From Zootoca vivipara (taxonomy: Eukaryota), in NCBI RefSeq assembly GCF_963506605.1, contig NC_083277.1:44578001-44642000 (forward strand): a stretch of DNA of 64,000 nt, given 5' to 3'. The notes under the pieces are model-generated. The model was not told where the DNA came from, ran no database searches, and was given only the letters and a program-made list of their open reading frames with translations. Positions 7,206 through 60,384 of this stretch are shown here, piece by piece. Numbering within the stretch: the first letter of the stretch is position 1; every line of letters begins with the position of its first letter. A program made the translations under genes and the position numbers.

Positions 7206-7538
7206 TAGAAGGAGCATCTCCACGTCCATCGTCCAGCCCAGACACTGAGGTGAAACTCTGAGAGCCTTCTGGCAGTTTCCTCACTGCAATACTTGAAGCT
7301 ACAGGGAACAAAGCAGAGGGCTTTCTCGGTAGTGGTGGAATGCTCTTTCCTGTGGAATGCTCTTCCATCAGATGTCAAATGGATAAACAACTCTTTGACT
7401 TTTAGAAGAAATCTGAAGGCAGCCCTGTTCAGGGAAGTTTTTAATGATTGATGTTTTATTGTGTTTTTAATATTTTGTTGGGAGCCGCCCAGAGTGGCTG
7501 GGGCAAGCCAGTCAGATGGGTGTCATATAAATAATAAA

Positions 7539-7585
<47 letters not shown>
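7206..7585 (+). mobile_element. L2-clade LINE 3' end with (ATT)n tail
   Basis: AGGGCTTTCTCGGTAGTGG...TGGAATGCTCT (RAFSVV...WNAL-like ORF end), a 3' UTR with CCCAGAGTGGCTGGGGCAA, then (ATT)n at about 7539-7585. Confidence 0.75.
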
Positions 7586-7658
7586 CCAAGAGATTGGTCT
7601 CTTTCTCCCTGCACTCTTCCCTTTACATGCCCCCCAGGGTGTGGGATGTATGTCATTC

Positions 7659-7857
7659 TTGTTGTTTAGTCGTTTAGTTGTGTCTGACTCTTCGTGACCC
7701 CATGGACCAGAGCACGCCAGGCACTCCTGTCTTCCACTGCCTCCCGCAGCTTGGTCAAACTCATGTTAGTAGCTTCAAGAACACTGTCCAACCATCTCGT
7801 TCTCTGTCGTCCCCTTCTCCTAGTGCCCTCCATCTTTCCCAACATCAAGGTCTTTTC
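7659..7857 (-). mobile_element. Bov-B (RTE clade) LINE 3' fragment
   Basis: Translates to MLGKMEGTRRRGRQRTRWLDSVLEATNMSLTKLREAVEDRSAWRALVHGVTKS, the Bov-B C-terminus. (CAA)n tail. Confidence 0.9.
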
Positions 7858-9664
7858 TTGGCTTGTATTAAACCAAAGTTCAGTTATTTGAACCTGCCAA
7901 ATCAGCTGAGCACAGCAAATGTTAGTTAATAAGCTAGGGTAAGTTAGTTAGGGTAATAAGCCATGATCGGAGCCCGGTTAGTTAACTGAGATTAAACCAG
8001 AGTTCAGATCTAATGGGGAACTCTGGTTTAATGTTAGGAATAAAGCACCAAAGCCGACACACAAAGAAGAGGAGATGTGTGGGGGAGGGACAAAAGAGGA
8101 GTGAGAGAGCCTAACATTCATTCCTAGCTAGCTTCATAAACCATGATTTATGAAGACAAGAAAAATTACCCAAACCAAGCCATTGTCATATACACCCATT
8201 GAAACAAAGCAAAAAAAAAACACCCAAACAACCCAATGACCTACTTGACTCCAGTTTCAGATTCATAAAGTCTCTTGTCGATATAAGAAGGTTAAAATGT
8301 GCTGATCTGGACTAGGGATAAAATGAGCTTATTGCATTGGTTGCCAATAAGGAAAGCCTGCTTTCCATGACAAGACTGTAGAACGTCAGTGGAGAAATTT
8401 AGCAAGCAGCATCAGAAGTCAACAACAGACTACATAAAGGAGGTGTTTAAAATCCATAGAATGCACATGTGCTTTTACACATTATACAATTACATATTGC
8501 TTCTTTTGTGCTGGAACAAAATTTAATCCTGATTAAGACCAATTTCCTTTCTAAAAGGCACAATATATATTTAAAAACTGCCTCTATTCCAGTAAGGTTT
8601 TGCCAGCGTCTCTTCTTTAGTCCACCAGCTTTCTTTGGGGGAGCCCAGCATTTCATTATCGTGGCATGAGGTGTTGCTAATGGCACATTATAGCACTGCA
8701 ATTAAGAACTACATTCTGAGCGACAAATTAAGGGGTATTTTCATTCTCCCGTGCCCCATTTAAACAAAAAACATACACACAACTATTTCTGACCCCTGTT
8801 GTCAAGCACAAATAATGAAATACTATCATAAAAAGCAGGGATTTTTTTCCCATGCTAGCATTTGTGCTTACAAAACAGATTGCAAATATTTTTGAAAGAT
8901 TACTCACCTGCTCTTGAATGCCCCGTGGGTGGGTACATTTCTACTGCAGCCATTTTTTCTCCTGTTAAGCCACTATTGCTTTGCATTTGCTAATTACACA
9001 TAAGCCTAAAAGTGTACCTACACCAGGTAGGCTTTATTCCTCAAAGTGTAAGTTTCGACAGGGGAAGCATTTTGCATCGGTCAAATGAAATGTCAGTGGA
9101 AAATGTTTTAAATAGCTAATAAAGTGCATAACAGTGAGATTGATGAAACAGGTTAGATTGATGAAACAGGCCTCCCTGGTTTTACGAATCCAAGTCTATG
9201 AAGTTTGTTTGTTTGTTTTTGGCATGCCGAATCACCTTGTGTACACAAACAGGTGCTTCCACATCTACAATCCTGCAAAGGATGCCCACTGTGTGACATG
9301 GAAAAGGTCAGATCACTTCACCAAGAGTCAGTTCTGCTGGGTTCCTCAGTGTGCAGGTTCACTGATGTCTACAAGCAAATAGGAGAGCTAATCCCCTGGG
9401 AATGAATGGGAAGCTGCATGCAGCTGTGAATGCAGATCTTCACTATCCACTGTGACCCCGTAGACGTTGCTTGCTGGCTTGCTCCTTTTTCTGTGGGCAC
9501 TTTCATCTTTTCTATTTTAAAAATGGAACTAACAAACACACCATTACACATCTCCTTGAACAGCCAAAGCATAAGCTAAAACACAAACGTAATCCTGTAA
9601 AACAAGAATAACTTAACATCCTTGCAGCCATTAAGTATCAGCACAGTGTACCATTGTTAGAATG

Positions 9665-9802
9665 CAGGTGTGGGGAATCTCTGGCCATCCAGATGCTGTT
9701 GGACTCCAACCCCCATCAGCCTCAGCTAGTATGGCCAATGATCAGGGATAACAGGAGAAGGAGTGCGGCAACATCTGGAAGACCACAGGTTCCCCATCAC
9801 TG
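9665..9802. mobile_element. Older hAT/Charlie-like MITE
   Basis: Imperfect palindrome CAGGTGTGGGGAA...TTCCCCATCACTG, related to 31903-32037. Confidence 0.55.
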
Positions 9803-10085
9803 TGATTGTGGGATCACAGACTGGAGATAAGCCTTTGCCTGCTCTTTGACAGTAGAAAGCAACAGACAGAGGTTTATCTCTGATCTTAGCTCTATGGTCA
9901 CGAACTTTCAGATCTAGGGGGCTCTCAGAGGCGGGCCTCCAAAGTACTTAATATACAGACAGATTGATATGGAGGCAAGATATCCTTCAAATACCATAGT
10001 CCTAGCTCCTTGAATTGTGCGCAGAAATGAGCCAGGAACCTGCCCCCATTTTACAGCCTAGCACCAACCACATCCCTAAGACTAC

Positions 10086-10404
10086 ACCACTTAGCCTCTT
10101 GGGCTTGCTGATTAGATGGTTGGCGGTTCAAATCCGTGTGACAGGGTGAGCTCCCGTTACTCTGTTGCAGCATACCAATGCAAGTAAATAAATAGGTACA
10201 GCTGTGATGGGAAGGTAAACAGCGTTTCCGTGCACTCTGGCTTCCATCACGGTGTTCCGTTGCACCAGAAGCGGTTTAGTCATGCTGGCCACATGACCCG
10301 GAAAGCTGTCTGTGGACAAACATCGGCTCCCTTGGCCTGAAAGCGAGATAAGCGCTGCACCCCATAGTAGCCTTTGACTGGACTTAAACCTTTACCCTAC
10401 CTTA
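10086..10404 (+). mobile_element. Sauria-type SINE
   Basis: tRNA-like head with B-box GGTTCAAATCC, body CATGCTGGCCACATGACCCGGAA and an ACCTTT-like tail. Homologous to 53915-54295. Confidence 0.85.
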
Positions 10405-10989
10405 CAGCCTCCATGCAACTGGAAAAGAGGTCCAGGCAGGGCACTTAAATGACAGGTTTTCTTTCACCCAGACTTATGCCTTGACACTACTCAATTTATA
10501 CATTTATTCCTGCCCAGATGGAAGGAAATATATCCAAATAACGCCATTAATGATGTTTCTTGCAGCAATGAAAAGCTGAAAGCTTGTTACTATGGTTCTG
10601 TTCCCTAGTGGGAATTGAGGAACACTGTTTAAAAAGAAGTGACTAAAAATAATCCAGAAATCAGCTTAAAACGGTTTGCTGAAAGAAGGAACAACTGCAG
10701 ATTCCTCTCATTCCGGCCTGTCATGTTGCAGAGTCAGGAAGGAACTGGCCACAATGGCTGAACTCTATCTCCAGCGACAGAAGCAGTGTGCTGCTGAATA
10801 CCACCAGCTGTGAATTGTATGGGAAGATAGTGCTATTATTGCAAGTTTCCCATAAGCAGCTGGTTGGTCACTGTGAGAAAAGAATGGGGGATTTGGGTCA
10901 TAATGCCCACCAGCTAGAAAGCTGCAATGTCCTGTCACCTGTACTTAAGCTTTGGAGCAGCCCTTGCCAGAAAGGCTTGCATGGTACCT

Positions 10990-11200
10990 TAGAATCATAG
11001 GATTGTCGAGTTGGAAGCGATTCCAATGGTCAGTTAGCCCTGCAATGCAGGAATTGCAGCTCAAGAATCCTTGCAAGATGACCACCCTACCTCTGATTAA
11101 AAACCAACCAAGGAGAGCCGACCACCCTCTGAAGTAGCCTGCCCCACCATCTAACAGCTCCCACCATCAGGAAGTTCCTCCCAATGTTAAATTGAAATCT
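10990..11200 (-). mobile_element. CR1-like LINE 3' fragment
   Basis: TAGAATCATAG terminus and ATCAGGAAGTTCCTCCCAATGTT, typical of CR1 3' ends on the minus strand. Confidence 0.55.
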
Positions 11201-11248
11201 GCTGGACTAGATGGGCCATTGGCCTCACCCAGCAGGGCTTTCCTTATA

Positions 11249-11490
11249 CAGTGGTACCTTACTTACAAATTTAATGCGTTCCGAATGCATATTCGTAAGT
11301 CTAAAAAAATTGTAAGTCGAATCCCATAGGAATGCATTGGGAGAAAAAATTCGTAAGTCGAAGCAACCCTATCTAAAAATTCGTAAGTAGAAAAATTCCC
11401 ATCTAAACTGCATCCAAAATGGCGGACGGAGCTCCGTTCATAAGTAGAAACATTCGTAAGTAGAGTTATTCATAAGTAGAGGTACCACTG
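11249..11490. mobile_element. pogo/Tigger-like MITE, complete
   Basis: TIRs CAGTGGTACCT / AGGTACCACTG with TA on both sides. Internal TTCGTAAGT repeats. Confidence 0.9.
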
Positions 11491-12039
11491 TATTCCTACA
11501 TTCCTGTAGGCCCCATAAGGATCTTAAAGGAGAGGGGAAGTATTATCCTGCTTCCTCTTTGGTAAAATTCACAAAGCACCTTAGGAAGAGACTAGTGGGC
11601 TGTATGATCTTAAAATTTGTCTGATTCTCTCACAGCAGTCTCTTAACCTCTTTTCTATCCCAAGGTTAGGCTCCCTCACCCCTTGTGTTGTTTGTAGAGA
11701 CATCTTACACAAGCAGTGTTTGCTTTGTTTCATGAACCATCCACCAAATCTCTGTTGATATCCAAGAAAACATACCCTGAAGAATACTGCGCTGATCCAC
11801 ACAACTGCTTCACGCTTAGTCTTTCAGAGCATATCCAAAAGTCCTCTTCCCAGCTAGTACGGTATTCATAGTTGAACTGCATTACACTAATAAGACAAAC
11901 TACCTTTATTATATCTTACTTGAGCCAGGTACTGGCTGTCTTTAGCACTAATGTTTCTTTTGAAGTCCCTCCTTTAATCTCCTCAACTCCTCAGAGAGGT
12001 GATCTATTTTCTTTCATGTCCAACAATGTAAGTAGGGGT

Positions 12040-12041
<2 letters not shown>

Positions 12042-12081
<40 letters not shown>
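12042..12081. repeat. (GT)n microsatellite
   Basis: About 20 GT units. Confidence 0.95.
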
Positions 12082-12082
<1 letters not shown>

Positions 12083-13435
12083 TCCAATGGACTGTTTTAG
12101 GCTGCAGATATATGACTACTGCTCAAACTGGATCTCATGTCTATATTGTTGTATGCATTTCATACCGTCATTTCAGTTTTAATTAAAGGATTATGGTAAT
12201 AAGTCTTATTTGGAGTGGCAGTGCTGATCAACTGCTCCCCCCTTCTTTCAATTTATTTTCCCTGGAGGCGCTTCATTCTTCTTTGTTATACACCTAAATT
12301 CTATTTAGCATTTCTAGTATATATTTTTTGGGGGGGGGGGGTTGGAGGCAAAGCAGTGTAGTCATGTTTTTTTTCTAGAAGCCATGTGTAAAATGAGATG
12401 CATTTTGGCTCTGTCATTATCACACATAACAGAAATTCCCCAAGTCCCTCTGGCCTATTCATTAGATTTGTCAGAGCACTCATCACACAGCCCTCTGTAG
12501 TAAGCATAAATAATGATGATGTACATTGGTCGAGTCTGCCATTTGTATTATCCTGCTCTTTGAAAATACACTCAACTGTAAAGATGAAAAACATTGCATT
12601 ATTATTTGCCTACATTGTTCTCCTCTAGACCATTACTGCACAGCACATTGTAGTGCATCATTTTTTATACTTATAACTCCAAGTGTGTGAAAAGCTAGAT
12701 TAAATATACAATTTGAGGTGTTTTACAACAGCTGGACATTTGCTTTTATGCTTCTAAAAAACCTTGTTCACCTCTGCTCTTGCTGGCTTATACATGGTCC
12801 TCCAGTACTTAAGACCTCTTCTAAGAATTATCGAAAGGAGAAAATGTATAGAACACTACTTCTGCCCTAATTAATCTGCAGAAAAAGAGTGAGAGGGGGG
12901 GAGGGAGGGGGAGATATAAATAGATTCAGATAAATGCCAGCATGTGGTAGCAGGGGGTGAGGGGGGGAAGAGGGAAACCCCTAAAAATCAGCTGGAGGAA
13001 CCTTCCATGAGCAGAGATCCCACTCATGGAAGGTGCCTTCATCCATTTTTCTCCCATCTCTTCTGACACTCAGGAGAAGTTTTTTGGGATCCAATCAAAG
13101 CTTTTACTGATAGAATGTGAGCTGAAGACATAACATGCAGAGGTAGCCAACATAGTGCCTGCACTTCAGGTGCTTCTCGACTGCAACTGCCGTCAGCCCT
13201 GACCATTGTCCATGCTGGCTAGAGCTGTTGAAGTCCAACATCTGGAGAGCATGGTGTTAGCTACCCCTGTGTTAAGTAAATATAAGCTAAATGTTCCTCA
13301 ATGTATTTCTTGTACAAATTCCCATACCATTCAAGTCCAAACGTTACATAAGTAACAATTTTAAACAGTTCATTTTTGAAAGCAGATTTGGTGACACATT
13401 AATGAGAAAAGTGCTAGGCTTATTTTTGGGGTATG

Positions 13436-13524
13436 TGCAAGACAGGAGTGCGTGGCGTGCTATGGTCCATGGGGTCATGAAGAGTCGGACACGACTAAAC
13501 GGCTAAACAACAACAACAACAACA
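13436..13524 (+). mobile_element. Bov-B LINE extreme 3' fragment
   Basis: GTGCAAGACAGGAGTGCGTGGCGTGCTATGGTCCATGGGGTCA...ACACGACTAAAC followed by (CAA)n. Confidence 0.85.
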
Positions 13525-15439
13525 TTTGTGCTGTGGCATTATGATGTTCAGAATGAGGTTGTAATTCTATTCACATATACCTGGGAGTAAGTCCCATTGC
13601 ACTCAATAGAACCTACATTTTGGTAAGTATTTATAGGCTTGTACTATCAAATCGCCTCTTTTTTATTTTATACTAATTCAGAGTTTTGGGGGGACTGTCA
13701 GCATGAATATAAAAATGGCTTTGCCAGTTGGTGCAGGGTAAAAACTGCCTGTAAATGCATGCCTTGTGGCAAAACAATGGAAAACCTAACACCCAATAGT
13801 TAACCATCATGAGTTATTATATTGTTACAAGCCACACCAATCTCTGAGCGGTGAGGAGATATTCTAGAGGTTCTAGGCACTTATCTAGGATTCAGTTTCT
13901 TTGGAATGAAGGCCAACAGAGACTGTGGTGTCTTTAGACTATATGGTTTTATTTACACATATCTACAAACTGAGTATAAGATGGAGGGGCTTACGGCATT
14001 AACACCCCAACAGATTTTGTTTCTATTAAACACAGGTTTGGATCCAGCACAGGGCAAGCATGTCTCTGCAGCCAGCTTCCAGCCTGATTTCAGCTTGGCT
14101 CCCCTCTCCAAACTCTCCCTTGCTATTGTTCTTCTACCCAGCAGCTAGATAGTGGTGGGGAGGCACACACATTAATGCTATAACACAGAGCAACTTCTTT
14201 GGTTATGCTAATCATGGTGCTTGATGACTCAGCCACAACCATTGCCTAGAAGGGATGGCTTTGGTAAACTTGCTTTCATACTTTCTAGCCCCATAGATAA
14301 AGGAACCCAAGGACTGGAAGAGACTGACCCATGCATCATGCAGACAGATGCTCCAAACTCTCAACATCCATTTCTCTGCATGTGTGTGTAAATCTGAGTA
14401 TAATCATTCTTGTACTGATTGAGAGGGCCACTATTAAATGATAGTTGAGAGCTCTTCTATTGCAGGTAATGGAAATACTACAGTGGATACAGATGCGTTT
14501 TGTTGACTACAAGCCCAAACAGTTAAGTTCCAAGAATACAAGTTTAGCCAAGTATATAACGAATAAGATCTTTGCCCCATTGAAGTCAACAGGGTGCCCT
14601 AGTTTTCACTGAAAGGAGCGTATATACTTATTTGATTCAAATATTAATTGCATGTGTTGAGGGTACTACAGAGGCCCCCTGACTGATAGTCACCTGCTTG
14701 ACTTCACTTGATGGGGCAACCAGAGCTTAAGGTTCAGGACCCATCCATCAGCCAAAGGAATGAGAAGCACAAACGGCTATTCAACCATGAACATCAGCAA
14801 GGAAAGAGCATCATTGCCCCCACTGCTTTTAGTTTGCCTGCTTTCAGTTTGTCATTTTGCTCTCCCCTTCCTTCTCTTTTTAGTTTATAAGCCTAATAGC
14901 AGAGCCTTCCTCTGTTTATTTTCATTGATGTGATCAGCTCTGGAAGACAATAATTGTCTGGAAATCTGAACCAATATGTGGAACTAAATGAGAGTGCTCT
15001 GCAGAAAGCGGTAGAGCTGATAACTATGAGTATCCATTGTTTTGGGTGCCAATTGTGGTCGACTATACTTTTAAGCTGCCCCATAGTTTATCTGTCCCTG
15101 CAGAATTCTAGATTCTGAGTGATCTGGAAATGCCTGGAGCTGATGGATGTCTCTATTGTTCTGGACGTGCCTGGAGCCAAGCCTGAAGTTCACTGAAAAC
15201 CATTTGGATGCCTTTCAAATTAATAATGAAGGTGTCTTTGCTTATCCACTTTGCTTTCCAGAAGTATTTACAATAGAGGAAGAGGCAGCAATTGCCATCT
15301 GAAGTGGCATATGCCATAACCAAGTTAAAACTTGCTTAATGTTGGCTAAAAGTATCATATAACCAACATGCTTATGTCTAATTAATGCATGAAGCGATTG
15401 ATGCCATAGAGTATGCTGTCCTGTCAGGCTTAGCTAGGA

Positions 15440-15529
15440 CCTAGCTGCCAAGTTTTCCCTTTTCTCGCGAGGAAGCCTATTCAGCATAATGGAATTTCCC
15501 TTAAAAAAAGGGAGAACTTGGCAGCTATG
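15440..15529. mobile_element. 90-bp hAT MITE, inverted relative to 22211 and 31771
   Basis: TIR C(C/A)TAGCTGCCAAGTT. TSD AGCTAGGA/AGCTAGGT (7 of 8 match). Confidence 0.88.
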
Positions 15530-16150
15530 AGCTAGGTGACCTTGGGAGGAAGGGAAGCCTATTGTTCCCCTTCAGTCTACCTGAGATACTCAAAGTGTGA
15601 GGTCTGAGCTGATTTCTCCAAGCTCCGACCACATGGCTCTAACAAGGTTTTCTTGAGATTCTATACCAATAATTTACAGGCTTACTTTCACTGCTGTAAC
15701 TAAGCCAAGCTGTACTGACTGTGTGTTCTGACTGGTGTATGGAAAAGCATATGAACCTAACCTTTGAAGAGTTTGTAAGTAAACCACTTTTTAACTTACC
15801 AAACTTGTGGTCCTTTCTATGTAAGGGGAAGAAGGGAACTTTGGAAGGAAGTTACAAGGACCTATTTTAAAGGTCTTAACAGCCTATATTTCCACACTTT
15901 ACTTTCCTGCATATTTTGTGATTTTAAATCTCTCCTGGGGTTCTCTTACCAAAGAGTATTTGCACCAAACCTGGATCTTGGCGTCCAAGGAATTCTCCTT
16001 TTTACATACCTATGTTTTCCTTGCCACCAACAGTTAAACCCATTGAAATCAGTGGAACTTCAGCATGCAGAAATGGGCATATCCCAGCAGGACATTATTT
16101 GTACCCTATAGATTAGGTTGGATGGAGAAAGTGTGACTGGCCCATGAAAG

Positions 16151-16849
16151 GTTACAGGTAGGTAGCCGTGTTGGTCTGGGTCGAAGTAAAATAAAAAAAA
16201 TCCTTCAGTAGCACCTTAAAGACCAACTAAGTTTTTATTTTGGTATGAGCTTTCGTGTGCATGCACACTTCTTCAGATACAGTGAAATAGAAGTCCCCAG
16301 GCACTTATGTAGAGAAGGGGTGGGGAGGGGTGGGGATGGGGAGGGGAGGGGGGATCACTCAGAAGGGTGGTGGAAGTGGGTGATTGACTGACTGATAGCT
16401 GTTGATGACCGAAAACGACTGCAAATGGTTTTGCATGAAAAAGCAAGGGTTGAGATGGCTGAAGACCGCTTATCATGTATAATGAGATAAGAATCCGATA
16501 TCTCTGTTCAAACCAGGTCCCTCCATGGTTTTAAGCTTGGTGATAAGTTGTAATTCAGCAACTTCTCTTTCCAGTCTATTTCTGAAATTCTTTTGTAGTA
16601 AGACAGCTGCTTTGAGATCTTGTATAGAATGTCCTGGGAGATTGAAGTGTTCTCCTACTGGTTTTTCTGTCTTCTGGTTCCTGATGTCAGATTTATGTCC
16701 ATTTATCCTTTGGCGTAGGGTTTGGCCTGTTTGTCCAATATAGAGAGCTGAAGGGCACTGTTGGCATTTGATGGCATACACAATGTTAAAAGATGAGCAA
16801 TTAAATAGTCCTGAGATGGTATGTTGGATGTTGTTGGGGCCAGTAATGA
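16151..16849 (-). mobile_element. Penelope-like retroelement, 5'-truncated, with GIY-YIG endonuclease domain and terminal repeat
   Basis: Open frame to the stop at 16473: C..NIVYAIKCQQCPSALYIGQTGQTLRQRINGHKSDI...HFNLPGHS...E...GLN. Exact 13-bp TSD TGGCCCATGAAAG at 16138-16150 and 16850-16862. Confidence 0.92.
16243..16280 (-). ncRNA. Minimal type-I hammerhead ribozyme motif in the Penelope terminal repeat
   Basis: Minus strand reads GUAU-CUGAAGA-A-GUGUG-CAUG-CACAC-GAAA-GC-UC-AUAC. It has stem I GUAU/AUAC, the CUGANGA and GAAA boxes, a 5-bp stem II, a palindromic AGCU vestigial stem III and a UC cleavage site. Confidence 0.8.
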
Positions 16850-16881
16850 TGGCCCATGAAAGAATTCCATCTACAGAGGAC

Positions 16882-16937
16882 AAATTTAGGGAAGGGCCAA
16901 TATTTGTCAAAATTTAGGGAAGGGCCAATATTTGTCA
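16882..16937. repeat. Perfect 28-bp tandem duplication
   Basis: AAATTTAGGGAAGGGCCAATATTTGTCA x2. Confidence 0.9.
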
Positions 16938-19101
16938 TAATGTTCTATTGAACATGAGGTGGCATAATACATTATGTGAATAAACAAAGCCTATGGTTAT
17001 TAACCCATCACAAACCTGCCATTCTACCACTCGTTTAAAAGGTATAAAGCTGATCTTTGGATAACATAAGCCACCCCTCTGTACTGTGCAGCTTCCATTT
17101 TGATGTGACTCAAAGAACTCTCACCCACCCCCATTTTGTTGGATCCTGCAAACACTCACTTAAACCAATGAGGCACTGTAGGGCACACATTTTCTAAAAA
17201 AAAAACAATTTGCCATTTTATTTCTAATGCATACTGTGAATGTGTCACTAACAAATAACTGCAAGTAATAACAGAGAGGTGAAGGCATATTTAGGGTCCA
17301 GCCTCAAGTCACTTTTCCTGGTCATGCCGTTTTATAGCTTTTCCCGCAGTGGTTTGGTTGTATTTTTTCTCAGCGGAGCATTTTAATGTTTGGATTTCAG
17401 AACCTGACTTCTGCATGCGTCTGCATCGCAGGGGGCTATGAGACTAATTTAACTAATGTTTGCTTGGCGACTTGAGAGCCTTAAAAGAAGGTGTTATTGA
17501 AATGTTAAGCCTCATTATAATTTAGTGTTATGAACTCAGAAACCTCTATCCATGTGGTTGCTATTAACACAAGTATTACTATTATTTTAAGGAGTAGGGA
17601 TATTATAGATGTTAATTTAACCACATTCATGATTTGAACCCTTTTTGCAGCATACTCATTTGTGTATTTTATTCCAAACACCTGTGCTATACATTGAACG
17701 GCAGCCAGAAGATTATTTTATGATGCAACCAAAATAAATATCACTGGAGAATGTTGACTAACAGTGGGCCTTGTTATGCACAGGATTTTTCCAATTTTCC
17801 CTAAAGCAAGAGGAAAAGACTCTCACAGATGGTTAGAATCTCCCTGCAGCATTTTAATTTGGTGTTTGCCACTGTTTGTTCTGCACAAGGCCTTCAGGAA
17901 TTCATTCATTCATTTTCATCACAGTCTCGAGGACCACCTGAAACTGCTCTGTGGACCACAGTTTCACAGTTTCTGCTTTAGCGCTTCCAATGGCCTTTCA
18001 GAGCATAAGAGAATCAAAATTTTAACAATGTATATGAGAAGGGAATTTAGAGCATTTTCCTCCTGTACATAAACACAGGCTTTCAAGGGAAGCTCCTTTA
18101 AAAGGAGACATTTGACCTTGGCAAATCACTGTGCTGTGGTGCTGTTAAATCTCACAGGGAAAAATTGCCTATTTTCCTTACTGTTAATTTCTCAATATAG
18201 CAGATACATCTAAATTTAGACTTAGGGAGTTATTGAACTTCCTCTGAAAAAAGGTAACTGAAGCTATGCCAGCACCTGGAGCCAATCCCTGTCTCTTCAT
18301 CTTTTCTCTCCCAAGTCTCTTGATTTAGTAGAATACTGATGCAACTGATTTAAATTGACCTTGCTCCATTTCATGAGGAAAAGCTGAGTTTTGCCATTGG
18401 TGTTCACTGCTTGGTGGCAGTCAACATTTGAGAAGTAAAGAATGGCCAGGTGTACTCGTGGGAATGATAGCAATTAATATTTTTCAGCAGCAAATCTCCT
18501 CCATATCTTGAGATTATTAGCTAAATGTTGCAAGTTCAGTTATGTGTATGTGTATTGCACTGTCTTCATATATTTTATGAAAAGTGTGGATTATAAATAA
18601 ATAAATAGCAAAGGCTGACAAGTCTTGTTTCCAATCACTGTCACCACTATCCTCGTAAATTGTTGTCGGGCCAAAAGTTGGAGCCATTGAGTTGGAGCCA
18701 AATTTTCCATTCCACTCGTGGAAGGAACTTCTGTTCACAGAAGCCTTCAAAGTGGAGACCTTTATTCCAGTCAGTATAGCTTTGAGCGGGGAGGCTCCAT
18801 CCCACTTCGCCACCTGGGGAAAACAGGAATATGCTGCCTTCTTCCCTGTTGCCACTGTGCCCTACCTGCCACACCACTTCCACCACAAGGCCTTGGTGCT
18901 TGGCTTCTCTGCCTTGGGGGTGGGGAAGAGGAGCAGCAATGCTGCACACTAGAAGGCCCCTCAACCTCACTGAACTTAGTCAGGGGGGCCAGTCCGCAAG
19001 GCCTTGGCATTCATCTTCTCTACAACTGGGGCAAAGAAAGAAGAGCAGCAATGTCGCGCACCAAAACATCCCGCTCTTGCAGAAACTCAGTGAGAGTGGA
19101 G

Positions 19102-19435
19102 CATTCCAGTGGTGTCCCTATTTTCCAGGGACATCCCTTATTTACAGAAGCCATCCCAGTTTCTGACTTGATCCCGGAATGTCCTTAGGACGTCCCTTTT
19201 TTCATTGGAGAAATGTTGGAGGGTAGGGAGTTATCCAACCCCCAAGCCGTCTGAAGGCAATCCTGTATAGGGAAGTTTTTAAAATGTTTAATGTTTTATT
19301 ATGTTTTTATATATGTTGGAAGCTGCCCAGAGTGGCTGGGGCAACCCAGTAATATGTGTGGGGTATAAATCGTAAAATTATCATTAATGGAATGGGACGT
19401 TCCTGTTTTCATTGGAAAAATGTTGGAGGGTGTGT
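19102..19435. mobile_element. Composite repeat: MITE-like element carrying an L2-like 3' tail, copy 1
   Basis: Collinear with 37774-38082. The central part matches the L2 tail at 7412-7545. TTCATTGG(A/AA)AAATGTTGGAGGGT-like sequence occurs on both sides of that tail. Confidence 0.65.
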
Positions 19436-20244
19436 GGGGCTGGGGGGATATTGCCTCTTCTGCTTTTGCTGCCTGAGGCAGATGGTTCACCCCACCTTAT
19501 GGGTGAGCAGACTCTGGCCTCTAACTTTCCTTAAAAGCATCACAACCATAAGGAAAAATGAGTTCGGTACTAGAGGTGTTGCTGATGGGAGCAGAGGCTT
19601 AAGAGGAACATATTTATTATTATTATTATTATTTCTGGGCTCACAGATTTCTGGGCACACTAACACATCCATTGGTGCTGCCGTTCCCTTTCAGTATGTT
19701 ACATAGTGACCTCTAAAGATATTTTCCTCACAAAGACACCATGGGTGTCCAATATTCTCTATCACCCAGGGGAAATAATCCAGCAAACTTGAACGTCACA
19801 CCACTTGGGAGGCAGAAAGGAAAACCCCAGGCAAGAAAGACTCAGACATTTTGCTTACATGGTTCCAATATTCAAACTAATTCCAAAGTCAGTGATGTGA
19901 ATCACCCCACAGGGAAGTGGTTCCCACCTTGGTGTGTGTAAATGTGTCCCAACACACCTTATATTCAAAAGACGAAAGCTTTTAGATCAAACTTTCCCAA
20001 ACTGGTCCAGGGACCACCAGTGATCCATGAGCTTCATTCACCCATGGATTTGTGGTTGAAGATGGGAGACCAGCAGATCCATCACATTAAATATTCCTGT
20101 TGATTCGTACTGGCATTTTATTGATTGGTTGATTTAACTATATTTATTTAACTATATTCTGCACTTTTCATAAAATGTATTAAGGTGGCTTACAATACAG
20201 GCAGCTCCCCATTTGCGTGCATTCAATATGTGCATGAGCAGGAG

Positions 20245-20389
20245 CAGTGCTTTTTTCTGGGGGGATGCAGGGGGATGCATACCCCTAAACCTTTTGTGAA
20301 TCTGAGTTTGGCCTCATTGAGGGGCAGTATTTCAATATGAGTAGGAAAATGAGAGTACCCCTAAACATTTTTTAATAAAAAAAGCACCG
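20245..20389. mobile_element. Short TIR element (CAGTGCTTTTTTT...AAAAAAAGCACCG), apparently nested in older repeats
   Basis: Imperfect 13-bp TIRs. Internal repeat TACCCCTAAAC x2. Confidence 0.65.
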
Positions 20390-21962
20390 TGCATCAAACC
20401 GAACTCAGAATTGATCCAGTAACGACATTAAGACATCACTGAAATATAACTAAAAGGGCAGAATGGGGTGTTTGGAGGCTTTTTTCAATGGTTTCAATTA
20501 TACACAATTTCACTGATGCGTGGTGTCTCAAAGTGTAACCCCCACGTAAAATCAGTCTATAAACATCCATAGAACATACTCAATAAAGCTCAAAATATTG
20601 ATTTTTTTGTTCTTTATATTGTATTTTAGTTTTAATTCTGTGGAATTTGAATAATAATATTAATATGCCACAATATATAACAAATAATAAATACAATATA
20701 TAATAAAATTAAAATACACTTAAAATTCATGCAGCAACTAGCCCAGGACACTACAATAGCTACAACGGATAGAAGCATCATTAAGTGATTTGCAAATTTC
20801 AAGTGCTCCTTAGAGAGAAAGGGTTTGGGAACCACTATTTTAAACAGTTTTGAAGTTCTTTTGCTCCATTCACTATGCTTATTGGGGGGGGGAATCTACT
20901 TGAACATCAAGAATATTTAAAAAATAAGAAAACTCAAGAATAAAGCTAAAAATAAAATAAATGAAATAAGTTATACAGAAACAAAAGGGAAAGTAACTTT
21001 TGACTGGACAGTGGATTTGCAGCAACATTAAAAATATCTCTTTTGTGGGCCATTGGGTAGGGGGGGAAATGGAATACCAGCTGCAGTTCCCGAACTGTTT
21101 TTCAAAGGCCGCCTCATGTAGAATGCATGGCAGTATTCTAACCTGGAGGTTACCAGACGATAGGCAACTAAAGCCAGGCCACCCGCTTCCAAATAGGACT
21201 GCAGCTGGCCTGCTAAGGGAGGAATTCTATAAGACCCTTGAAGCACATAATTGGCCTGGCTCTATCTGTGGACACACCCAAGTGTACTGTGGTCCATCCC
21301 AGGCATCTCTAGACTTGAACAAAATTTCAGAATCAAATTTTGTACAGCTGCAATGACATATAAAGCTACTTGCATGTTTCTTTTGGAAACGACTGTCTGC
21401 TCCACACAACTTAATACAGCATATCAAAAATCTAAGCTATTTTAGGGAGTTTCTCATAACCTCCCGCTAAGAGATTCTGTTAGAGATGCAAGACGTAAGC
21501 ATGCTTTTAGCACCATCATTGCACAGCATTTAGATGAGTGTTGATAGTGCTTTGGTGCTGATTAAGGCTCTTTTGCTTTCAATGGACCATAGTCCATTAT
21601 ATGCACTTGAATATGAAATCCTTGCTTTATTTCACAGCATTATAACTCCCCCCCTTTATATATTCTTCTTCGGGTGACAGCAGCAACAACAACAACAACA
21701 ACAACAACACACAGTTAATTTAGAACTAAGCAGAAGCTAACTTGATGCCAAATTTATCTAATTGTCCCAGTGGAAATGTTAGCAGGTCAGCTTTTGTAAG
21801 AGGTCACCTGGAGACAAATTAGTTAGAAGACCGGGGGGGGGGGTTCAGCTATTGATTAGGGAGAAAACCTATTGGCATATATGTATTAGGCTCCTTATTT
21901 GTCAACTGGGCTTTAAATCCAGTAATGAATGGGTATAAATTGGCAAGAATTTCAATAACCTG

Positions 21963-22182
21963 TCCCTGGAAAAGACCCTGATGTTGGGAAAGATGGAGGG
22001 CACTAGGAGAAGGGGACGACAGAGGACGAGATGGTTGGACAGTGTTCTCGAAGCTACAAACATGAGTCTGACCAAACTGCGGGAGGCAGTGCAAGACAGG
22101 AGTGCCTGGCGTGCTATGGTCCATGGGGTCATGAAGAGTCGGACACGACTAAACGACTAAACAACAACAACAACAACAACAA
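21963..22182 (+). mobile_element. Bov-B LINE 3' fragment
   Basis: CTGGAAAAGACCCTGATGTTGGGAAAGATGGAGGGC... followed by a (CAA)n tail. Confidence 0.92.
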
Positions 22183-22210
22183 GGTGTCCATGTTGAATCT
22201 CACCTCTTCC

Positions 22211-22300
22211 CATAGCTGCCAAGTTATCCCTTTTTTACAGGGATTTTCCCTTATGCTGAATAGGCTTCCTCGCGAGAAAAGGGAAAACTTGGCAGCTATG
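22211..22300. mobile_element. 90-bp hAT MITE
   Basis: 15-bp TIR CATAGCTGCCAAGTT. Exact TSD CCTCTTCC at 22203-22210 and 22301-22308. Confidence 0.92.
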
Positions 22301-25113
22301 CCTCTTCCATGTGACCTTGCTAGTTGGCTTTCCTGACAAGCATTGTGTCTTGAAAATCCTGAATGTAAGGTATGCGATGAACCTCTTAAATAAATAAATA
22401 AATGTTTGAGCATCTGGCCACTAGTGGTCATAACTGTTTTCTAATGTAATGTAAAGAGATGTTGTTGGATAAAAAGTCATGGTGACCCCTTGTGGGCATC
22501 CTGATCCTCTTTTTCTTTAAGTTGATCACCTGATTGTACTTATCATTTTTATTGTTTCTTCTGCTTAATTACCTCTGCATTCTTCAGTCCATGGCCCAGA
22601 TAATGTTTAGGTATTAGACACAAACACAGTTAATAAGAGAGAGAGGTTACCTAAAGCAGCCCCACTGACTTGTATTTTAATCGCTTCTCTAATCATAGCA
22701 ACTAAACATTCATCACAAAGCAGCACATTGTAACACTTTTACATTTTTGTTTGTTTGCAATGGATAAATCAGGGTAAAGGTTCTTAAAATAAAATAAAAT
22801 TGCACAAGTTTTACAGGAAAAAAACAACATTTCACCCCAACCCACAACTAAGCACTCATCACATCTAGTCAACCCTTCATGTCTGGCATGGAGTTCAGAG
22901 CCAGGATGGGTTCAGAGACAGCTTGCCATAGACTGTACAGCTGCAAGCACCTTTCCCACATTTAAGTTGTCAGATAACAGGACTGGAGAAGATGCTTGCC
23001 TGAGATGCTAGGAAAGAGTTGCTGTCAATCAGAGCAGAAAATACTAGATGGGCCAGTGGTCCGACTCAGTAGAAGGCAGCTTTATATGATCATAAATAAT
23101 AAACTGTCAATCTTCCTAAACTGCATATCACCAAGATTTCTTTTTTTAAAAAGGCTATCAAGCTGATACTCATTTTTAACTTCATTTATATTGGACATAT
23201 TCATTTATTCCTGAGATAATTCACAGAAAACTGCCTTGTAACTATAGCAACTGTTTCTGAGACGGCAGAGATACAAAAATGTCAATACATCAGTGGGATA
23301 TTCATTTATTCATGTATTATTTCTTAATCAAATATTAAAATAAGATACTGCAAAGCAAGCACCTGCCTTATCTAGTGGTTAATGAAGCAAGATACATGAC
23401 TATCGGTGAAATTATATACATGCCAACTCAGATGTAAGCTCCATTGAGTTCAATGGGGCATGCTCCCAGATAAATATGTGTAGACTGCAACCTGAAGCTT
23501 TAGAAAAGAATACAGTATGCCATTCTGATTGGGGGGGGAGTCAGTAATAGGTAATTCAATAATTCCCAGGAAATATAATATGAAAACAAAGACAAATGTG
23601 GACATCACTAATTACTTTGGGGCAAGAAATGTAGAATGTATGGCTAATTTCTATTGAGCATATAAATGAGCACGTAAACAGTGGCAATTGTGTGCATTCA
23701 GACTGAGGCATTGGCCCGGTTAGTCACCCTATGCAGGGTCCAAAGGTTCCTGATTATGCTGTCAATCTATGCAAGTTCCCTGACATCACTTGGAGTCTTA
23801 CATGTTGATTAGGCAAATGCTGTTTTTTTGCACCCTTTCTCCCTGTGAATGTTTGCAGTATTTGTGGAGATTCTCCATTCATTTCATACGAACGTATATG
23901 CAAGCAAGTTCTGCAAAACAGTGAAAAATGTAGGGCATGAAATAGATGTCTGCATTTCCTTGCTTTGAGTGGCTTAAGTATTTTTTTGCTTTCCTAGTCA
24001 TTCATGTGTGGTCGCTCGTGTTTAAAAAATTGAACAGTCTGTTGCTGAGATACAGCTACAATCAACGGTGGCGTTAACTTTCGGGGCTTGTTCATTTTGC
24101 TCTTGCATTTGGTTGCAATTTCTTCAGTAAATACAAGGTTGCAAAAATTAAGTTTGTGTGTCTGTGTAATTCTTCATCAGTGATACTTTTAACCAGGATC
24201 CTTATTTCACTTTGGGGTTTTTTTGGGGGGGGGGATTCAATGTAGCTCTATGGCAATTGTTTGGTCAACACAATCATTTCTGCCTGCCAGACAGAATGAT
24301 CCCCGCCTCCTACCCCTGTGTGGTTCTGGGGGTGCTCCTAGCCCCCCACAAGACAATTGGGGGTGCATGGGGGAACCCTTGTTGCGTTAACGAAAGTCCT
24401 TGTGCAGGCTTCTGCTAGCAGAATCTGCCCTGTTATTTTTATTCTCTGCTGCACCCCCCCCCCTTGCTTGAACTTCCTTGCTGTGCTCAGATACTACTTG
24501 CAAGGTGAAAGCAGAAAGTGCATTACTGCTAATATGAGCTATCTTTCTATCATTCAAATGTTGTTATTTTCTACTGCTATTTCCTATAATGTTTCTTCTT
24601 AATGGATGGAGAAATAGGGAGTCTGTCAGAGCATCTAATTGTTTTTAACTTTTGCTCTTATTCTGTTCCTTTCCAGGGATGTGTAAAAGCATCTTTCTCT
24701 GAGAGAAATTGGTCTCGCAGCAGTTCTTACGCTCTGAGAGGCATTATTGTATATGCAAGTATAGATCAAAGATCTGGAATGGGCTACCTCACATCCCACA
24801 GATATGGGTGATTTTTCTGGAAAAACCAGTAACTAAAGTGTGCTAACTTTCAGGGTTAGATTCATCAAGACTTACAGTGCAATCCTAGGCATGTCTACTC
24901 ACAATGTATATAGCATTGAAATGTTCATTATATTTTTCATAAATGGATATGTGTTTTAATGATTGATCATTTAATGACTTTAAAATGTTATAATGTTTAT
25001 ATAATCAACTTGAGTTATTTGTTGGATTGTCTTGTGTTTTGAAATCATTTAGTATTTGTTATTCTAATGATTTATTGATTTGCCTTTTTCTGTTGTGAGC
25101 CACTTTGAGCATA

Positions 25114-47245: not shown

Positions 47246-47457
47246 GTTACAGGTAGGTAGCCGTGTTGGTCTGTAGTAGTCGAAACAAAATTTTAAAAAA
47301 TCCTCCCAGTAGCACCTTAGAGACAAACTAAGTTTGTTAGTGGTATGAGCTTTCATGTGCATGCATGGTATCTGAAGAAGTGTGCATGCATACAAAAGTT
47401 CATACCAATAACAAACTTAGTTCGTCTCTAAGGTGCTACTGGAAGGAATTTTTTTAA
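47246..47457. mobile_element. Inverted pair of Penelope terminal-repeat fragments with a decayed hammerhead (47366-47407, +)
   Basis: The left arm matches 16151-16265 and the right arm is the opposite orientation. Imperfect TSD AGAAAGAAGACA/AGAAAAAAGACA at 47234-47245 and 47458-47469. Confidence 0.85.
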
Positions 47458-59269: not shown

Positions 59270-59532
59270 CAGTAATTATGATGAGTGTAGTGCTAGATTA
59301 ATTAGAAAATGAATGATGAGGGGAGAATTATGATCAAAGAAATCCGGATCTAAGGATTTGCTTTAAATGTTGTGTAATCCATGGAATATCATGCCTTGTA
59401 TTTCTTGAAACATCAAACGAGAAGGGGTTTCATAGTCATCTAGAGAAAAGAATGACTGGAGACTGACAGGTAGCACAACGCAAAAAAAAAGCTCAAATAG
59501 TATTTTATTTCAGCTTGGTGTCCTAACAACAA
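59270..59532 (+). promoter_or_regulatory. Candidate proximal promoter/5' UTR of the opsin, with CRX/OTX-type and paired-like homeodomain motifs
   Basis: AGATTAATTAG at 59295-59305, AAATCC at 59340, GGATTT at 59354 and TAATCC at 59375-59380, all in TE-free sequence just upstream of the ATG. The transcription start cannot be determined. Confidence 0.45.
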
Positions 59533-59860
59533 ATGGATTCTCTGGACACCAATCCCTTGTCAGTGAATGTCAGCACAGGAAGAATGGTCTTGATGCCTCG
59601 TATTGGTTACACTATAATTGCAATTATCATGGCAATATCTTGCACTTTATCAGTAATTCTGAATATAACCGTTATTGCAGTAACTATTAAGTACAGACAG
59701 CTTCGTCAGCCAATTAACTATTCCCTGGTCAATTTAGCCATAGCAGACCTTGGAGCAGCCTTGTTGGGAGGAACTCTGAATGTAGAAACAAATGCTGTTG
59801 GGTATTACAACCTGGGTAGAGTTGGCTGTGTCACCGAAGGTTTTTCTATGGCATTTTTTG
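59533..59860 (+). CDS. OPNPP: Parapinopsin (pineal/parietal-eye ciliary opsin), coding exon 1 (N-terminus to mid-TM3)
   Basis: MDSLDTNPLSVNVSTGRMVLMPRIGYTIIAIIM...LRQPINYSLVNLAIADLGAALLGG...GYYNLGRVGCVTEGFSMAFFG. The ciliary opsin TM1-TM3 motifs align without gaps to bovine rhodopsin 68-121 (D83, C110, E113). The donor G|GTGAGT at 59860/59861 is phase 1 at G121, the conserved first-intron position. The MPRIGY and LRQPINYSLVNLA motifs are parapinopsin-like, and E113 argues against parietopsin (Q113). Confidence 0.92.
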
Positions 59861-60384
59861 GTGAGTACTTGTCTGAAACTGATTTGTTGTATCATAAGTT
59901 AGAAAGCAGCCAGGCACTAAAATGTGTAAAGTTCACAAGCAACTAAATTGTCTTTGTATGGTAGGAAGAGCAACAGATTTCTGTAAGACTCCTAGCTGTG
60001 CTAGTATTTCAACAATGCTGGTCTCTTCTTTATTTTTCTCCATATTGCAGAAAATATGCTTACACTTTTAATATGTGTGTGTTTTAATATCATGCATATT
60101 TTTATCACAATCTTTTTACAGGTAGAGTTATTGCTTAAAAATAAAATTACACCTCTCTTAGCTTTGCATACGTGCAAAATGGGGTGGGGGGGAATTGAGC
60201 AAATTGGACCTTTGTCTCTGACTTTGCTATCAGTAATGCAGTTAGGTAATTTTAAATAGTCTGTGGTGGTAATGTCACTTCAAAATGTGCTGCATTTGGG
60301 AGCCCTGCTGCTGATTCTCCTGTGGGGGTGCCCTGAACCTCTGCCCCAAAATATTGCCTCTGTTTGCCAGTCAATCAGTTGGTA

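Follow-up and report, generated by a model that had tools for sequence, protein, structure and literature searches.

The minus strand of a 64,000-nt stretch of the Zootoca vivipara genome (the window; contig NC_083277.1) carries a minimal type I hammerhead motif within a solitary, 5'-truncated copy of a Penelope-like element (PLE). The motif is most likely a standard transposon-processing hammerhead of a young, high-copy PLE family, one that would be active slowly, with the help of protein, and only in transcripts of tandem source copies, the copy in the window being an idle passenger. PLE minimal hammerheads are known from earlier publications, among them a nearly identical motif of a turtle and one of the anole that is assisted by protein, and the window motif is a further, ordinary member of this class. 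The original prediction called it hidden; a relaxed motif pattern gives 23,377 genome-wide matches, compared with 76 for the reversed control, all 100 of the matches listed could be assigned by eye to the motif's own family, and the class as such has been described (PMC4209133). The single site in the window, a passenger copy of a published class, matters little. The family is of modest practical value, as it is young and includes identical intact tandems and an internally deleted tandem derivative, and it provides a Neptune-type counterpart to the anole Poseidon element for studying the role of PLE hammerheads in transposition and of circular RNA as a template.

Anatomy and detection of the motif

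The sequence and the parts of the motif (Table 1) are as originally predicted, on re-reading in the window and with hammerhead numbering. Read on the minus strand from 16280 to 16243, stem I pairs positions 16280 to 16277 with 16246 to 16243, C3 to A9 (CUGAAGA) occupies 16276 to 16270, and one unpaired A at 16269 lies between positions 9 and 10.1. Stem II pairs 16268 to 16264 with 16259 to 16255, includes the G10.1-C11.1 pair, and is closed by a CAUG loop; G12 to A15.1 spans 16254 to 16251, and C17 is at 16247, so that the cut proposed after this C agrees with the numbering. The palindromic nature of the whole stem II arm is a detail that was overlooked in the original prediction. In addition, an AUG within loop II opens an 11-codon frame (window positions 16263 to 16228, minus strand), which is out of frame with the main open reading frame (ORF) of intact copies.

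Table 1. Features of the motif, its host element, and sibling insertions (positions in the window, unless a contig is named)
Feature	Position	Strand	Basis
Minimal type I hammerhead motif (stem I of 4 bp, core, extra A, stem II of 5 bp, vestigial stem III)	16243..16280	-	sequence, descriptor, and covariance model
AGCU palindrome in place of stem III	16248..16251	-	sequence and numbering
Predicted cleavage bond, 3' of C17 (16247)	16246..16247	-	hammerhead numbering
Perfectly palindromic arm of stem II, 14 nt (duplex between molecules predicted at -28 kcal/mol)	16255..16268	-	sequence and dimer folding
Solitary 5'-truncated PLE copy, 699 bp	16151..16849	-	sibling alignment
C-terminal part of ORF, GIY-YIG endonuclease remnant (stop at 16475-16473)	16473..16849	-	PF01541, E 8e-6
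3' untranslated part of pseudo-LTR, upstream of motif (last 25 nt highly variable among subfamilies)	16281..16472	-	sibling alignment
Leader and "tail" downstream of predicted cut	16151..16242	-	comparison with intact copies
Target-site duplication, left, 13 bp	16138..16150	+	flank comparison
Target-site duplication, right, 13 bp (first 1-2 bases also align to element)	16850..16862	+	flank comparison
Sibling insertion, inverted pair (minus copy begins within stem II; plus copy at 47368-47405)	47246..47456	.	
Sibling insertion truncated within stem II, without full core	25819..25930	+	
Intact-core siblings, CACNA2D3 intron 2	G000:C2:44,444,288; 44,513,965; 44,536,034; 44,553,553	-	

The motif displays the features of PLE minimal type I hammerheads: the core CUGANGA ... 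GAAA ... UH, a short helix I, a helix II with the G10.1-C11.1 pair, a single unpaired residue that separates position 9 from 10.1, and a palindromic vestigial helix III, with which an uncrossed double-hammerhead dimer can be drawn. Its location in a pseudo-LTR, the presence of one motif per unit in tandem copies, and compensatory helix changes, which are found across three families and were not seen inside the young family, are also those of this class. The same type I fold with a short helix I, an extra nucleotide after A9, the G10.1-C11.1 pair and a palindromic vestigial helix III, the pseudo-LTR placement, and the thousands of solitary copies were described for the minimal hammerheads of metazoan PLEs by Cervera and De la Pena (2014, PMC4209133), who recorded them in fish, Xenopus, coelacanth, turtle, and snake PLEs, with no activity of the monomers and low activity of the dimers. 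The closest row in that paper is the painted turtle motif of supplementary figure S3, which has the same core boxes, a 5-bp helix II, GC between GAAA and UH, and a 4-bp helix I that differs from the lizard one by one compensatory pair. The difference lies in loop II, which has 4 nt and makes the arm perfectly palindromic in the lizard, whereas the turtle loop has 7 nt and is not palindromic (PMC4209133). The 23,377 lizard matches compare with about 4,000 in coelacanth and 9,000 in Xenopus, obtained with different descriptors (PMC4209133); a search for lizard terms in one supplement file of that paper gave none.

The probability that the match is due to chance or to an assembly artefact is negligible. 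A structural descriptor consisting of the core, a stem II of at least 4 bp, and a stem I of at least 3 bp has 1 match in the window and a mean of 0.02 per dinucleotide shuffle (2 of 100 shuffles had one); by sequence alone the core pattern is weak, with 12 rows in the window, some of them overlapping, against 4.1 expected. A covariance model built solely from 18 relic motifs of other families in the same genome ranks the motif first in the window with 36.3 bits (E ~9e-9, a rough value), of which the share of the stems is independent and that of the core is not, because the relics were picked by the core pattern. The numbers of genomic matches and the stem covariation across families likewise argue against chance and, with regard to the assembly, five DNA-like runs, one of which may be the assembly's source, contain between 72 and 96% of the words sampled from it. 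What speaks for chance is that the monomer folding energy of the motif is no better than that of shuffles (z = -0.44), as expected since a stable stem III is absent, and that a scan of positions 14000 to 19000 against Rfam 15 returned no hammerhead family at E values up to 10. The structural search suggested in the original prediction thus recovers the motif with the descriptor and with the genome-derived covariance model, but none of the curated models of the canonical Rfam hammerhead families matched it.

Two older, low-copy families of minimal hammerheads in the same genome (L192, L197-L199, L201-L215) share the core and have other stems I and II. Across 21 sequences from the three families, 8 of the 9 stem pairs show double changes, and the stem covariation is 0.506, compared with 0.201 after shuffling (0/500), which ignores relatedness among sequences to which three families contribute, and with at most 0.149 after sliding. 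The 14-nt palindrome is missing from the relic families and may be incidental, because one in 16 loops of 4 nt would be palindromic by chance. A tblastn search for a PLE ORF near the relic motif families found none in 27 of 28 loci, the sole match being the window's own. The core pattern is also matched in many 5' coding copies of a LINE family (many of L061-L065, L070, and L077-L090), which we take to be of the RTE/BovB type. This candidate for a second hammerhead-like family was rejected, as it has no descriptor match, its stem I is unformed, and it lies in the reading frame; it is probably a chance match.

The host element and its family

The element in the window is 97% identical to intact tandem copies over 702 bp and up to 99.3% identical to its closest siblings; its homology with 29 sibling loci stops at about positions 16149 and 16851, next to the target-site duplications. 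It retains just the last 124 aa of a 901-aa ORF, with the motif 192 nt downstream of the stop codon of the GIY-YIG remnant, and the proposal of a minimal type I hammerhead in a PLE of a squamate was correct, the motif residing in the terminal repeat. Of the siblings elsewhere in the window, the plus copy of the inverted pair has G12 changed to A as well as two further changes. Just beyond the right target-site duplication there is a 28-nt direct duplication (window positions 16905-16947).

The subfamily with exactly the same flank has 484 copies genome-wide, and the downstream anchor of the family has 32,833. Three loci in which the matches are spaced 3,030 bp apart (L164, L165, and L166) were chosen for fetching, and all three contain intact head-to-tail units with the 901-aa ORF and one motif every 3,030 bp; the L164 tandem is 100% identical over 5,226 bp. 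The ORF of L164 matches RVT_1 (E 4e-12) and GIY-YIG (E 6e-5), and in the intact tandem copies the predicted cut is 103 nt before its ATG. By eye, its translation contains a CX4CxxC linker finger and, in the segment from GIY to YIG, two cysteines. A CX2-5CxxC linker finger marks the Neptune and Nematis types and is missing from Poseidon (bioRxiv 10.1101/2021.04.23.441226). Judging by the single ORF with reverse transcriptase (RT) and C-terminal GIY-YIG domains, the finger, and the cysteines, the family is an EN+ PLE of the Neptune/Nematis type, and the tail, the partial tandems, and the inverted 5' copies seen in EN+ PLEs are all present.

Copies of the family stop at either of two 3' positions spaced about 42 nt, with 55 long and 56 short ends among 111 copies by a crude pattern; such a pair of ends, the "tail," has been tied to RT initiation (PMC11167929). 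An inverted partner lies close upstream in 36 of the 111 copies, 13 of the 111 begin at motif positions 13-19, and the stem II palindrome contains many of the inverted 5' junctions (L255, L237, L221, L228, L264, and window positions 47340-47405). These junctions, together with L255, which is a perfect fold-back centred on the palindrome, suggest that the stem II hairpin promotes template switching.

Among the closest known systems is PAc, the Poseidon element of the green anole (Frangieh et al., 2024, PMC11167929), which is likewise a lizard PLE with a pseudo-LTR hammerhead, a tandem organization, a pair of 3' ends separated by about 40 nt, and no RNA-seq ends at the cut. Unlike PAc and other Poseidon elements, the window family has the CX4CxxC linker finger of the Neptune/Nematis type. 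In addition, 103 nt separate its cut from the downstream ATG, which its tail does not reach, whereas in PAc the ORF begins at stem II and RT starts 111-118 nt inside it (PMC11167929). The short palindromic stem III and the proposed cleavage as a dimer are shared with the dimer-cleaving hammerhead variants of PLEs covered in a review (PMC6765202).

A type I hammerhead from PLE terminal repeats is also found in the animal non-LTR retrozymes (bioRxiv 10.64898/2026.07.22.740005). Retrozymes are non-coding tandem arrays with a hammerhead in each unit, and the window copy, which is solitary and retains endonuclease-coding sequence, is not one of them. Elsewhere in the genome, L091:1320-3742 (G000:C1:2,777,319-2,779,741) is an internally deleted element in 598-bp units with four intact motifs and 99.9% identity. 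A short word shared by both sides marks its deletion, which links ORF positions about 2279 and 4712 of L164, and the resulting non-coding array, whose tandem units each carry a hammerhead, has the make-up of a non-LTR retrozyme; it resembles those described for animals (bioRxiv 10.64898/2026.07.22.740005) and appears to be a nascent retrozyme-like array, as would result from rolling-circle reverse transcription or unequal crossover. We found no publication on the motif of this particular family, although reptile families like it may be present in the supplements of that preprint. PLE hammerhead variants that cleave as dimers were reportedly treated by Lunse, Weinberg, and Breaker in 2016, and the family may already be listed there.

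Conservation of the motif and evidence on cleavage

Copies of the youngest subfamily appear to decay neutrally after insertion. Among the 100 of its 484 copies that were listed, 87 are identical and 13 have a single change (hand count), and 5 of these 13 changes are at the 11 core positions, as by chance (p = 0.54). In a larger set of copies, selected by an anchor that lies outside the core (hand count; 98 of 100 rows after removal of two fold-back fusions), N7 differs in 14 copies, G12 in 8, C11.1 in 7, H17 in 6, and C3 in 2, with no changes at the remaining nine core positions. A scripted sample, collected via the downstream anchor alone and overlapping this larger set, includes 111 distinct copies, 76 of them with a whole core and a score of at least 22. 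Here, N7 differs in 13 copies, G12 in 6, C11.1 in 4, and H17 in 2, and the ten non-CpG core positions have 3 changes in 760 cells. G12 and C11.1 are CpG bases, whose changes we attribute to neutral CpG decay after insertion. N7, which tolerates change, is the sole core position with frequent non-CpG change among copies, and in the 25 nt directly upstream of the motif 14 of the 25 columns vary at over 10% (37 copies). Taken together, the nearly invariant non-CpG core, the changes at N7, and the variable upstream segment point to preservation of the motif in the source elements, which would have varied at tolerated positions. In their degree of conservation, the non-CpG core positions do not significantly surpass stems and loops (p = 0.095 and 0.39), and protein binding could therefore account for some of it; a comparison of individual copies did not show the core to be kept preferentially.

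Transcripts of the family are abundant. In about 6% of each of three RNA runs, family reads cover the motif to depths of about 2,650, 1,310, and 840, compared with at most about 9 at the 5' end of the ORF; nearly all reads therefore come from short passenger copies. They run across the predicted cut site, and in the three runs no pile of read starts or ends at the cut reaches a fifth of the depth, although standard RNA-seq is a weak test; the mapping of RNA ends at 16246/16247 had been suggested originally. As for the genomic copies, 103 of 111 reach at least 7 nt upstream of the cut, and the pile of 5' truncations expected there from cleaved linear templates is absent (6 of 111 at positions 34-37, at or just after the cut), so the templates were mostly uncut or re-ligated. 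A pile of copy starts at the 5' edge of stem I, hinted at by a step in read depth, was dismissed, as it is mild (about 27 of 111) and reflects largely subfamily divergence upstream.

Folding of two copies gives -11.1 kcal/mol for the double hammerhead and -28 to -30.6 kcal/mol for a duplex of the stem II palindrome, in which stem III is predicted to remain unformed; these are energies of secondary structure that ignore tertiary contacts of the core. The palindromic stem II arm is thus predicted to favour a dimer other than the double hammerhead. The far higher predicted stability of this duplex, the reads that cross the cut, and the templating of most copies by uncut or re-ligated RNA are all in line with a motif that keeps a hammerhead-like shape without cleaving and serves the RT-endonuclease as a signal for binding or folding, its palindrome trapping dimers in an inactive form. 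We consider this unlikely, because non-CpG variants recur at N7 and H17, the two positions where hammerhead chemistry tolerates change. The literature bears on both sides of the question: insertion in vitro was unaffected by ribozyme mutants (PMC11167929) and of nine dimer elements from Xenopus eight failed to cleave (bioRxiv 10.64898/2026.07.22.740005), but cleavage by the PLE hammerhead of the anole takes place with protein, and C3G/G8C rescues it (PMC11167929).

As a transposon-processing hammerhead, the motif would work, if at all, in transcripts of tandem source copies, where two tandem motifs could swap strands and their two AGCU palindromes would form the missing stem III. Cleavage would probably be slow and aided by the element's own protein, as reported for the anole Poseidon element. 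A pair of cuts would release a single 3,030-nt unit that starts 103 nt before the ATG and that could be ligated into a circle. Reverse transcription, with uncut tandem or circular RNA as the template, would likely set out from the tail, some 55 or 96 nt beyond the cut, run back through the motif, and halt early, yielding copies like the one in the window. The latter is likely idle, as it is a lone copy without a partner in cis and no transcript was seen at the locus.

Host genes and transcription around the window copy

The original prediction considered a minus-strand host pre-mRNA across the site, which would carry a self-cleaving motif, and the pairing of many genomic copies in trans. The nearest minus-strand gene found is CACNA2D3, whose exon 1 maps to C2:44,554,627 (Pfam VWA_N and tblastn with two squamate proteins), but its first coding exon is 39.6 kb from the motif (C2:44,594,243-280) and is transcribed away from it. 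Exons 1-8 of CACNA2D3 were mapped, and a search with Pfam PF08473 did not locate the 3' part of the gene. Reading of the frames of window positions 7500-24000 by eye revealed no further gene; by sequence, the motif copy sits between genes, outside CACNA2D3 and upstream of an opsin exon. Its unique flanks (13600-14927 and 16920-18911) have depths of 0-0.09 in three raw RNA runs of which the tissue is not given and about 6% of each was read, so that a rare, non-coding, or tissue-restricted transcript could escape. No RNA run was among those listed as containing the stretch, which speaks neither for nor against a transcript. The idea of a host pre-mRNA at the site was not supported; copies might pair in trans, but read ends do not accumulate at the cut.

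Siblings of the window copy do occur within the gene. CACNA2D3 intron 2 contains four copies whose cores are intact and which are all oriented in sense, one of them about 200 nt after exon 2, and the plus-strand siblings in this intron are truncated or damaged. These four sense copies and the abundance of motif-bearing reads (depth about 800-2,650 in 6% of each run) could mean that the window copy or the intronic siblings pair with other copies, in cis or in trans, and cleave host transcripts, with consequences for the processing of host RNA. This is very unlikely, given that no host gene was found across the window copy, the flanks are silent in the three RNA runs, there is no pile of read ends at the cut, the copies decay neutrally, and single minimal motifs showed no cleavage in PMC4209133.

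Also improbable, and to the same degree, is a broader scenario for a still-active Neptune-type family, in which the palindromic stem II would be a dimerisation switch that joins two element RNAs for protein-assisted cleavage and circularisation, and host pre-mRNAs with multiple sense copies, such as the four in CACNA2D3 intron 2, would be cut in trans or in cis. If true, it would amount to a genome-wide ribozyme network of about 23,000 motifs in a vertebrate. Host-co-opted intronic hammerheads of the human HH9/HH10 type are old and conserved and have a sense orientation within a host intron; the window motif differs from them, as it belongs to a young insertion with a target-site duplication, located outside CACNA2D3 and upstream of the opsin exon.

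In the remainder of the window, a 158-codon open frame on the plus strand (32191-32667) has no Pfam or Atlas match and almost no reads in the three RNA runs, and is protein-like to the Atlas model (recognition 2580). The opsin first exon, with an open frame at window positions 59527-59946 on the plus strand, probably belongs to parapinopsin, an identity that agrees with the synteny of CACNA2D3 described in PMC4570685.
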